A DNA stretch of 64,000 bases from Escherichia phage Ec_YwIITB1, in sequence record PQ356294.1; one strand, given 5' to 3'. Positions 49,910 to 50,976 of this stretch are shown here, one piece after another. Every line of letters starts with the position of its first letter. Within the stretch, counting starts at the first letter, position 1. Under the pieces are notes generated by a model that was not told the DNA's origin, did no database searches, and saw only the letters and a program-made list of their open reading frames with translations. The position numbers were made by a program, and so were the translations under genes.

Positions 49910-50770
49910 TTACACCGCCATCTTTCCTTTAATTGGCGGGTGAGATACATAGTTGTTAAGAACAAAATTATGCGGCTTTGCGAATTGACTCAACCAAAAT
50001 ACCTGCGATTCTGTGTCCCATTCATCAAATTCATCTGGAAATTTTAATTGTAATTCGCATAAATCCATAGGTTCACGACGCAAAATTTCTTTACATTGTT
50101 CTACGTGATTCATATAGATATGAGTATTACCACCAGAAAATATCAAATCTCCTGGAATAAGTTTACACATCTTAGCTACAATATGAACTAACGTAGCATA
50201 TGATGCAATATTAAATGGAAGACCGAGGAAAACATCTACCGAACGTTGATACCACTGCAAATCCAAATAGCCATTACGCACATTAAATTGATAGAACATA
50301 TGACAAGGTGGTAATGCCATTTGCTTGAGTTCAGCTGGATTCCATGCTGAAACAATTTGACGTCTATCATTTGGCAGTTTTTTAATACGATCAACAACTT
50401 CTATAATTTGGTCTACACCACCAAAATCGCGCCACTGTTTTCCATAAATTGGACCAAGTTCACCACTATGGTATCCTAAATCTTTTGCTTGATTTTCGTA
50501 ATTTTCATCCCAGACTGTTTTGCCTTGAATTAATGAATCATGTTGAATTAATCGCAAATCATTGACATTTGTGCTTCCCGATAAAAACCATATTAGCTCA
50601 GCAATGCAAGCTTTCCAGGCAAGCTTCTTAGTCGTTACTGCAGGAAAACCTTTAGTTAAATCCCAGCGTAATTTAGTACCGAACAAAGCAATTGTTCCTG
50701 TGCCTGTTCGGTCATCGGTTTCGTAACCATTTTCCAGGATATCTTTAATTAAAAATTGGTATTGTTTCAT
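49910..50770 (-). CDS. td: thymidylate synthase Td, intron-less
   Basis: Continuous ORF; start MKQYQF at 50770 overlaps upstream stop (TAATG); ORF also open to ATG 50782. Confidence 0.9.
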   Translation of the reverse strand: MKQYQFLIKDILENGYETDDRTGTGTIALFGTKLRWDLTKGFPAVTTKKLAWKACIAELIWFLSGSTNVNDLRLIQHDSLIQGKTVWDENYENQAKDLGYHSGELGPIYGKQWRDFGGVDQIIEVVDRIKKLPNDRRQIVSAWNPAELKQMALPPCHMFYQFNVRNGYLDLQWYQRSVDVFLGLPFNIASYATLVHIVAKMCKLIPGDLIFSGGNTHIYMNHVEQCKEILRREPMDLCELQLKFPDEFDEWDTESQVFWLSQFAKPHNFVLNNYVSHPPIKGKMAV

Positions 50771-50976
50771 TAGTTCATCCAAGAATATGTCGAAGGATAT
50801 TTGGCAAAGTTAGGCTTATATCCTAATTTAACCATTTGTTTTGCTTTGCGAGTAAATCCTAAAGAACGCTCACCTTTAAGATATTGTTTTGGTGTCATAG
50901 GCCCTTGATGCATCTGCCGACAAATAAAAAGGGCCATAGCATTAGGAACATCCTTAACTTTTAATTTATTGCTCAT
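50770..50976 (-). CDS. small basic hypothetical protein between frd and td
   Basis: 68-aa ORF; start overlaps frd stop (ATGA), stop overlaps td start (TAATG). Confidence 0.55.

Follow-up and report, generated by a model that had tools for sequence, protein, structure and literature searches.

A conserved small gene of the PHROG 9550 family at the variable frd-td junction of a T4-like Escherichia phage

Introduction

The T4 genes frd and td overlap by four nucleotides (frd at 145109-145690, td ending at 145112; ATGA) and nothing lies between them. In the 64,000-nucleotide stretch of the Escherichia phage Ec_YwIITB1 genome analyzed here (PQ356294.1; hereafter the window), a short open reading frame, ORF68, stands between the same two genes. 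An earlier note on this DNA, which gave the T4 arrangement correctly, took ORF68 to be either a precise insertion into the operon or a gene that T4 has deleted, and considered it positioned for co-translation with the folate and thymidylate enzymes. The note expected the ORF to be missing from the T4 junction, and it is indeed missing there. This leaves the questions of whether ORF68 is a genuine gene, how it came to occupy the frd-td gap in some phages and not in others, and what it may contribute to phage biology.

Results

Organization of the locus

The window derives from a Tequatrovirus (T4-like) genome and carries, on its minus strand, gene 32, frd.3, frd.2, frd.1, frd, ORF68, td, nrdA.2, nrdA.1 and nrdA, in that order. 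ORF68 spans positions 50770-50976 including its stop codon, begins with ATG, and encodes a 68-codon, 7.9-kDa protein with a pI of 10.3. At its 5' end, the ATG (50976-50974) overlaps a TGA in the frd frame (50975-50973) to give ATGA (50973-50976). At its 3' end, the TAA (50772-50770) and the td ATG (50770-50768) have one base in common to give TAATG (50768-50772). Both overlaps were read directly from the sequence, and with ATGA on one side and TAATG on the other within one operon, ORF68 has on both sides the kind of overlap by which coupled gene pairs are recognized. The basic 68-codon ORF and the two overlaps are therefore just as the earlier note described them, on a strand (minus) that the note did not state.

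The resemblance to T4 extends to the junction itself. The context of the ORF68 start, TATAAATGA, is the same as that of the T4 frd/td overlap; in both phages frd terminates and its downstream neighbor begins within it, and the order frd, td, nrdA.2, nrdA.1, nrdA is shared. In T4, however, the ATG within this motif belongs to td, whereas in the window it is the start codon of ORF68, and td begins 206 nucleotides further on, at a second AATGA. The stop/start overlap of ORF68 with td is retained in UGKSEcP2, JS10, Marfa, CIP9 and 4S.

ORF68 is a conserved protein-coding gene

ORF68 matches the profile of PHROG 9550, a family of unknown function, from end to end (residues 1-68 against all 68 profile positions; E = 1.3e-45, 154.5 bits). 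Members of the family include proteins of UGKSEcP2 (CAH1615606.1), Klebsiella phage Marfa (YP_009850431.1) and phAPEC8 (YP_007348396.1). A tblastn search with ORF68 matched 237 phage records, in 133 of which (Tequatrovirus and Dhakavirus) the protein is at least 95% identical, many copies being 100% identical. Identity is approximately 80% in Klebsiella Marfavirus, 68% in Enterobacter Kanagawavirus CIP9, 60% in Serratia 4S and 43% in the unrelated Phapecoctavirus, and homologues in unrelated phages fall between 34 and 60%. The phAPEC8 and metagenomic homologues also match PHROG 9550. A HMMER search through 1.84 billion representative proteins yielded 10 true further clusters, all of 70-96 amino acids; a eukaryotic tandem-repeat protein (P0026) from the same scan was rejected as a spurious match. 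Conserved positions include K4, K6, P11, R20, K34, G40, M48, L51, G52, Y53 and P55. Among cultured phages, the family is confined to phages of Enterobacteriaceae.

Comparison of ORF68 with its Marfa and CIP9 counterparts gives dN/dS values of 0.14-0.17, with dS at 1.0-1.3 and synonymous sites thus near saturation, a pattern which shows, at the level of sequence, a protein-coding gene under purifying selection. The region is AT-rich and holds many short chance ORFs, and one might ask whether ORF68 is itself a chance ORF in a spacer. The PHROG match at E = 1.3e-45, the 34-60% identical homologues in unrelated phages and the dN/dS values effectively refute this idea, to which we give almost no credence. 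As a non-coding element ORF68 fares no better: it matches no Rfam family, and a sole 16.8-bit match to tmRNA is due to chance.

ORF68 is also already known. Over 130 deposited phage genomes annotate it as a hypothetical protein, PHROG 9550 is its catalogued family, and the copy in the window is an ordinary one: dozens of Tequatrovirus records hold a protein of 100% amino acid identity at the same frd-td position, and the broken frd described below is the only local peculiarity. Full-text literature searching turned up nothing about ORF68. Annotation of the gene is uneven. It is unannotated in the reference records of JS10 (positions 2501-2707 of our extract, L007) and SH7 (NC_054942.1), and is labelled 'flagellar biosynthesis protein' in PYPS2T (NC_054944.1) and vB_EcoM_P8, a label that our searches do not support.

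The td gene is uninterrupted and retains a vacant intron site

The td gene (49910-50770, minus strand) is a single unbroken ORF of 286 codons plus stop, with its ATG at 50770 and its stop codon at 49910-49912. It covers the entire thymidylate synthase profile PF00303 (positions 1-266 of 266; E = 1e-93) and scores 313.8 bits, where the gathering cut-off is 24.3. Its length of 861 nucleotides equals that of spliced T4 td, to which it is 86.9% identical in nucleotides and 87.8% in amino acids. T4 td differs in carrying a 1017-nucleotide intron with I-TevI. In the window, nothing occupies the corresponding insertion site, between 50222 and 50221, no group I intron was matched with Rfam in 49500-51800, and td contains neither a GIY-YIG module nor any extra ORF. 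The observation that td lacks an intron and an I-TevI-like gene thus holds.

The I-TevI homing site comprises a recognition region around the insertion point and an upstream CNNNG cleavage motif. In the window this region (50192-50266, minus strand; -45 to +30 relative to the insertion point) agrees with T4 at 68 of 75 positions, all seven substitutions being silent, and the CAACG cleavage motif is retained upstream of the insertion point. Given the tolerance of I-TevI to substitutions, the site is probably still cleavable. Close relatives that bear ORF68 include phages with a td intron (EC121, YUEEL01, Maryam and LH2) and others without one; therefore, the ORF68 and td-intron polymorphisms are independent of one another.

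A block near the C terminus of Td (49955-50065, minus strand; approximately codons 236-272) is strongly unlike T4, reading MDLCELQLKFPDEFDEWDTESQVFWLSQFAKPHN where T4 has KELCELVISGLPYKFRYLSTKEQLKYVLKLRPKD. Since the remainder is 92-100% identical to T4, td is a mosaic allele. In the T6 record that we used (L008), the ORF at 2471-3161, which follows a truncated 552-nucleotide td coding sequence, is labelled 'RNA polymerase sigma factor for late transcription'. To judge by its position, it is presumably the I-TevI gene within the td intron; if so, the ORF has been mislabelled.

The upstream frd gene is frameshifted in the window

ORF calls, profiles and alignment divide frd into two fragments on the minus strand. 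The 5' fragment (51182-51550) encodes the N-terminal part of dihydrofolate reductase (DHFR) followed by an out-of-frame tail and a premature stop. The 3' fragment (50973-51223, within an ORF at 50973-51275) encodes the C-terminal part in another frame. Relative to the closest relative, UGKSEcP2, the window has a 4-bp deletion (TCTG) between 51224 and 51223, and translation from the frd start consequently ends at 51182-51184, 206 nucleotides ahead of the ORF68 ATG. The deletion is private to the window in that it is absent from the best 15 of 512 matching records, and it represents either a real pseudogene or an assembly error. Because of it, the 'frd stop' that ORF68 overlaps is the stop of the out-of-frame 3' fragment only. 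Given that the frd frame is disrupted upstream, coupling from frd to ORF68 is broken in this phage if the frameshift is real, and ORF68, and through ORF68 td, must then initiate without frd.

Elsewhere in frd, a 27-nucleotide patch (51318-51344, minus strand) carries approximately 11 substitutions relative to the otherwise near-identical UGKSEcP2 and alters a 13-residue stretch of the protein, which reads HIVVCDLERDYPE in UGKSEcP2. The patch has the look of a short tract exchanged by recombination.

Occupancy of the frd-td gap varies among T4-like phages

A 551-nucleotide query centered on ORF68 matched 568 phage records. ORF68 is present at the frd-td junction in 135 of these; in most relatives another gene takes its place. 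We classified an evenly spaced sample of 60 of the matching records. The commonest state, in approximately 34 of the 60 (including T6, RB68 and PST), is a different insert of about 416 nucleotides. ORF68 was found in approximately 14 (including UGKSEcP2 and the window's own type), direct abutment of frd and td in approximately three (T4, FL12 and vB_EcoM_F1), and only a partial match to the query in approximately nine (including REP3 and MX01).

The alternative insert encodes an unrelated 115-amino acid protein of PHROG 1928, likewise a family of unknown function, and is the sole occupant of the gap in T6-type phages. In T6 the gene lies at 1399-1746 of L008, between two copies of a 9-bp direct repeat, TAAATGAAA (1372-1380 and 1788-1796). 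It resembles ORF68 in occupying the same gap in T6, RB68, PST and most Tequatrovirus, and in being bracketed by a direct repeat. It differs in having its own spacers of 20 and 44 nucleotides and no overlap with its neighbors. One record labels it 'putative homing endonuclease', for which we found no Pfam support.

The two genes are not mutually exclusive. Marfa, Kpn BM7, CIP9 and Serratia 4S carry both: frd is followed by one or two copies of the PHROG 1928 gene, and these by ORF68 and then td. Both genes are thus found together in Marfavirus, Kanagawavirus and Serratia 4S. We also sought a Tequatrovirus with both genes; a candidate, PM133, was rejected because the gene in question proved to be frd labelled 'hypothetical'. 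Phages with neither gene are rare and include T4 and the Dhakavirus MX01, in which frd and td overlap directly as in T4. In the five lineages Tequatrovirus, Dhakavirus, Marfavirus, Kanagawavirus and Serratia 4S, ORF68 directly precedes td, while its upstream neighbor is either frd or the PHROG 1928 gene.

An AATGA direct repeat brackets ORF68 in the window (50977-50973 and 50771-50767), and T4 has a single copy of this junction motif. The direct repeats around both cassettes fit deletion between repeats, as judged from the sequences, although the overlap of start and stop codons by itself accounts for part of the repetition.

ORF68 has moved between genera

Relative to the Dhakavirus JS10, the frd and td genes of the window are 70-85% identical in DNA sequence, whereas ORF68 is 97.6% identical (5 mismatches in 207 nucleotides); the pS values are 0.10 for ORF68 and 0.73 for td. 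The JS10 flanks nevertheless keep the Dhakavirus type as far as the junction, being 94-100% identical to those of MX01 (98-100% over the last 100 nucleotides of frd). Since JS10 has ORF68 and MX01 lacks it within flanks that are alike, the presence or absence of ORF68 is polymorphic within two genera and the gene has recently been transferred between them. Constraint on the nucleotide sequence itself was considered as a reason for the near-identity with JS10 and rejected, given pS values of 0.55-0.62 relative to Marfa and CIP9. Crossovers in the invariant 5' end of ORF68 (encoding MSNKLK) and in the conserved first 50 nucleotides of td would suffice to move the gene, and a special mobility mechanism is unnecessary. 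The GC content of ORF68 (0.358) is the same as that of its surroundings.

The N-terminal part of frd (51369-51488, minus strand) forms a second island that is 92-97% identical to JS10, the remaining frd being 70-75% identical. This suggests that patchwise exchange is general in the operon.

The encoded protein is basic and predicted to be helical

The ORF68 protein has a net charge of +11, with 13 lysine and arginine residues against 2 aspartate and glutamate residues. AlphaFold (AF2), run with a 22-sequence alignment, predicts helices at residues 13-24, 29-38 and 43-50 with a pLDDT of 82. Searches for relatives of known function gave no match in Pfam or NCBIfam, none among defence-related profiles of PADLOC-DB at E <= 1, none in a PDB profile search at E <= 10, and no analogue in the structure library. 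Neither profile nor fold comparison detected a GIY-YIG, HNH or NUMOD/IENR module in ORF68, and the reading of ORF68 as a homing-endonuclease remnant was rejected. Likewise, no helix-turn-helix profile matched and the predicted three-helix fold did not superpose on that motif.

The distant homologues, from Phapecoctavirus and five metagenomic phage contigs, lie in small-gene arrays or replication modules, and none is near td. These surroundings give no clue to function, and the absence of linkage to td or frd means that ORF68 need not take part in folate or thymidylate metabolism. In one contig (L012; 1286-1669 and 6001-6279), a 92-amino acid distant homologue lies approximately 4 kb from a Tad2-like gene (PF11195), beside a Phage_T4_Y05C gene and among many small genes of unknown function.

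Discussion

We favor, with moderate confidence, the explanation that ORF68 is an accessory gene of the frd-td gap that belongs to PHROG 9550, is expressed by coupling to its neighbors, and encodes a basic binding protein. On this account, PHROG 1928 and PHROG 9550 would be old residents of the frd-td gap in T4-like enterobacterial phages, of which individual lineages keep one, both or neither: T6-type phages would have lost ORF68, the lineage of the window would have lost PHROG 1928, and T4 would have lost both. Alleles would also travel between phages through recombination in mixed infections.

Given that the distant lineages Marfavirus, Kanagawavirus and Serratia 4S keep ORF68 beside td and that direct abutment is rare, T4 most likely lost ORF68 rather than the other phages having gained it, although few lineages bear on this point, direct abutment is also found in Dhakavirus, and repeated gain is possible. 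Thus, of the two histories offered in the earlier note, deletion in T4 is the favored one and insertion is not, while the locus is more accurately described as a presence/absence polymorphism with recent exchange. The PHROG 9550 annotation, the PHROG 1928 alternative, the unlinked distant homologues and the frd frameshift are points that the note did not contain.

As for expression, the mRNA of the frd-td-nrdA operon would serve as the template for ORF68. Neither a sigma-70-like promoter nor a terminator was found beside it, and RNA structure is unremarkable at both junctions, with no start-occluding fold predicted (z = 0.34 and -1.03). The initiation context before the ORF68 ATG is weak, lacking a good Shine-Dalgarno sequence, and the same context serves td in T4. 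Together with the conserved td overlap, these features lead us to infer termination-reinitiation coupling from the upstream gene to ORF68 and on to td: ribosomes that finish the upstream gene at ATGA may restart on ORF68, and those that finish ORF68 at TAATG may restart on td, so that ORF68 would serve as a relay for td translation. Conservation of the stop/start overlap across five lineages makes translational coupling of ORF68 to td plausible. The proposed co-translation with the folate and thymidylate enzymes is accordingly tenable on the td side, whereas on the frd side it fails in this phage if the frameshift is real.

The least certain step concerns the protein itself. Its pI of 10.3 and the predicted three-helix model suggest that it may bind nucleic acid or an acidic partner, and we would expect it to act as a dispensable factor in early infection rather than as a component of dTMP synthesis. 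The strict adjacency of ORF68 to td in five lineages speaks against this part of the explanation, since it could signal a td-related role. Were ORF68 a dedicated partner of thymidylate synthase (a regulator, a chaperone, or an adaptor to the dNTP-synthesis complex) kept beside td to ensure a fixed proportion of the two proteins, one could readily understand why the overlap directly upstream of td persists even though the upstream neighbor varies. Yet T4, T6-type phages and MX01 lack ORF68 even though their td genes are closely related, the homologues in Phapecoctavirus and the five metagenomic contigs have no td nearby, and no distinctive td allele accompanies ORF68, the N-terminal half of td in the window being 92-100% identical to that of T4 and T6. 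We therefore consider such a partnership quite unlikely.

Selection by host strains would offer another account of the patchy distribution within genera and the recent exchange between them, if ORF68 were a counter-defence or host-takeover protein. The small size of the protein, the occurrence of its distant homologues among small uncharacterized genes, the one homologue approximately 4 kb from a Tad2-like gene, and the restriction to Enterobacteriaceae phages among cultured phages are all in keeping with this, but the evidence is circumstantial and ORF68 matches no defence family and has no structural analogue. This possibility, which seems to us unlikely, overlaps the favored explanation of an accessory binding protein rather than excluding it. 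More doubtful is the notion of a selfish mobile cassette, or of a DNA-binding relic left by the decay of a homing endonuclease gene formerly present at the junction. The precise boundaries with AATGA on both sides, the near-identical ORF68 DNA in two genera with diverged flanks, and a junction that hosts alternative genes, one of them labelled 'putative homing endonuclease', could all be read in this way. T-even phages do carry free-standing homing endonuclease genes (seg and mob, with mobE between nrdA and nrdB) that, like ORF68, are optional, patchily distributed and placed between genes of nucleotide metabolism. However, ORF68 has no nuclease or NUMOD domain, is too small, and overlaps its operon neighbors, whereas T4 mobE lies 23 nucleotides downstream of nrdB.1. 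Furthermore, purifying selection acts on the ORF68 protein across genera, no endonuclease gene adjoins it in the window, two overlapping start/stop junctions would in any case produce the AATGA repeat, and the label on PHROG 1928 lacks Pfam support. We judge this origin very unlikely.

A bolder reading is also conceivable, although we think it improbable. ORF68 might found a new fold family of small basic phage proteins with a specific target in early infection, such as a defence system or a host factor associated with nucleic acid, or might act as a td-linked relay or regulator that tunes thymidylate synthase; gain and loss of cassettes at ATGA junctions would then be a general way in which T-even phages add genes to coupled operons.

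As a discovery, ORF68 amounts to little, and the value of the locus is mainly comparative: two ancient alternative small genes share one junction, and one of them, ORF68, has recently moved between genera. PHROG 9550, a conserved family under purifying selection with no recognizable fold, could sensibly be included in functional screens of small accessory proteins. The reference phage T4 is itself atypical at the frd-td junction, which is relevant to work on the nucleotide-metabolism operons of T-even phages that takes T4 as its template.
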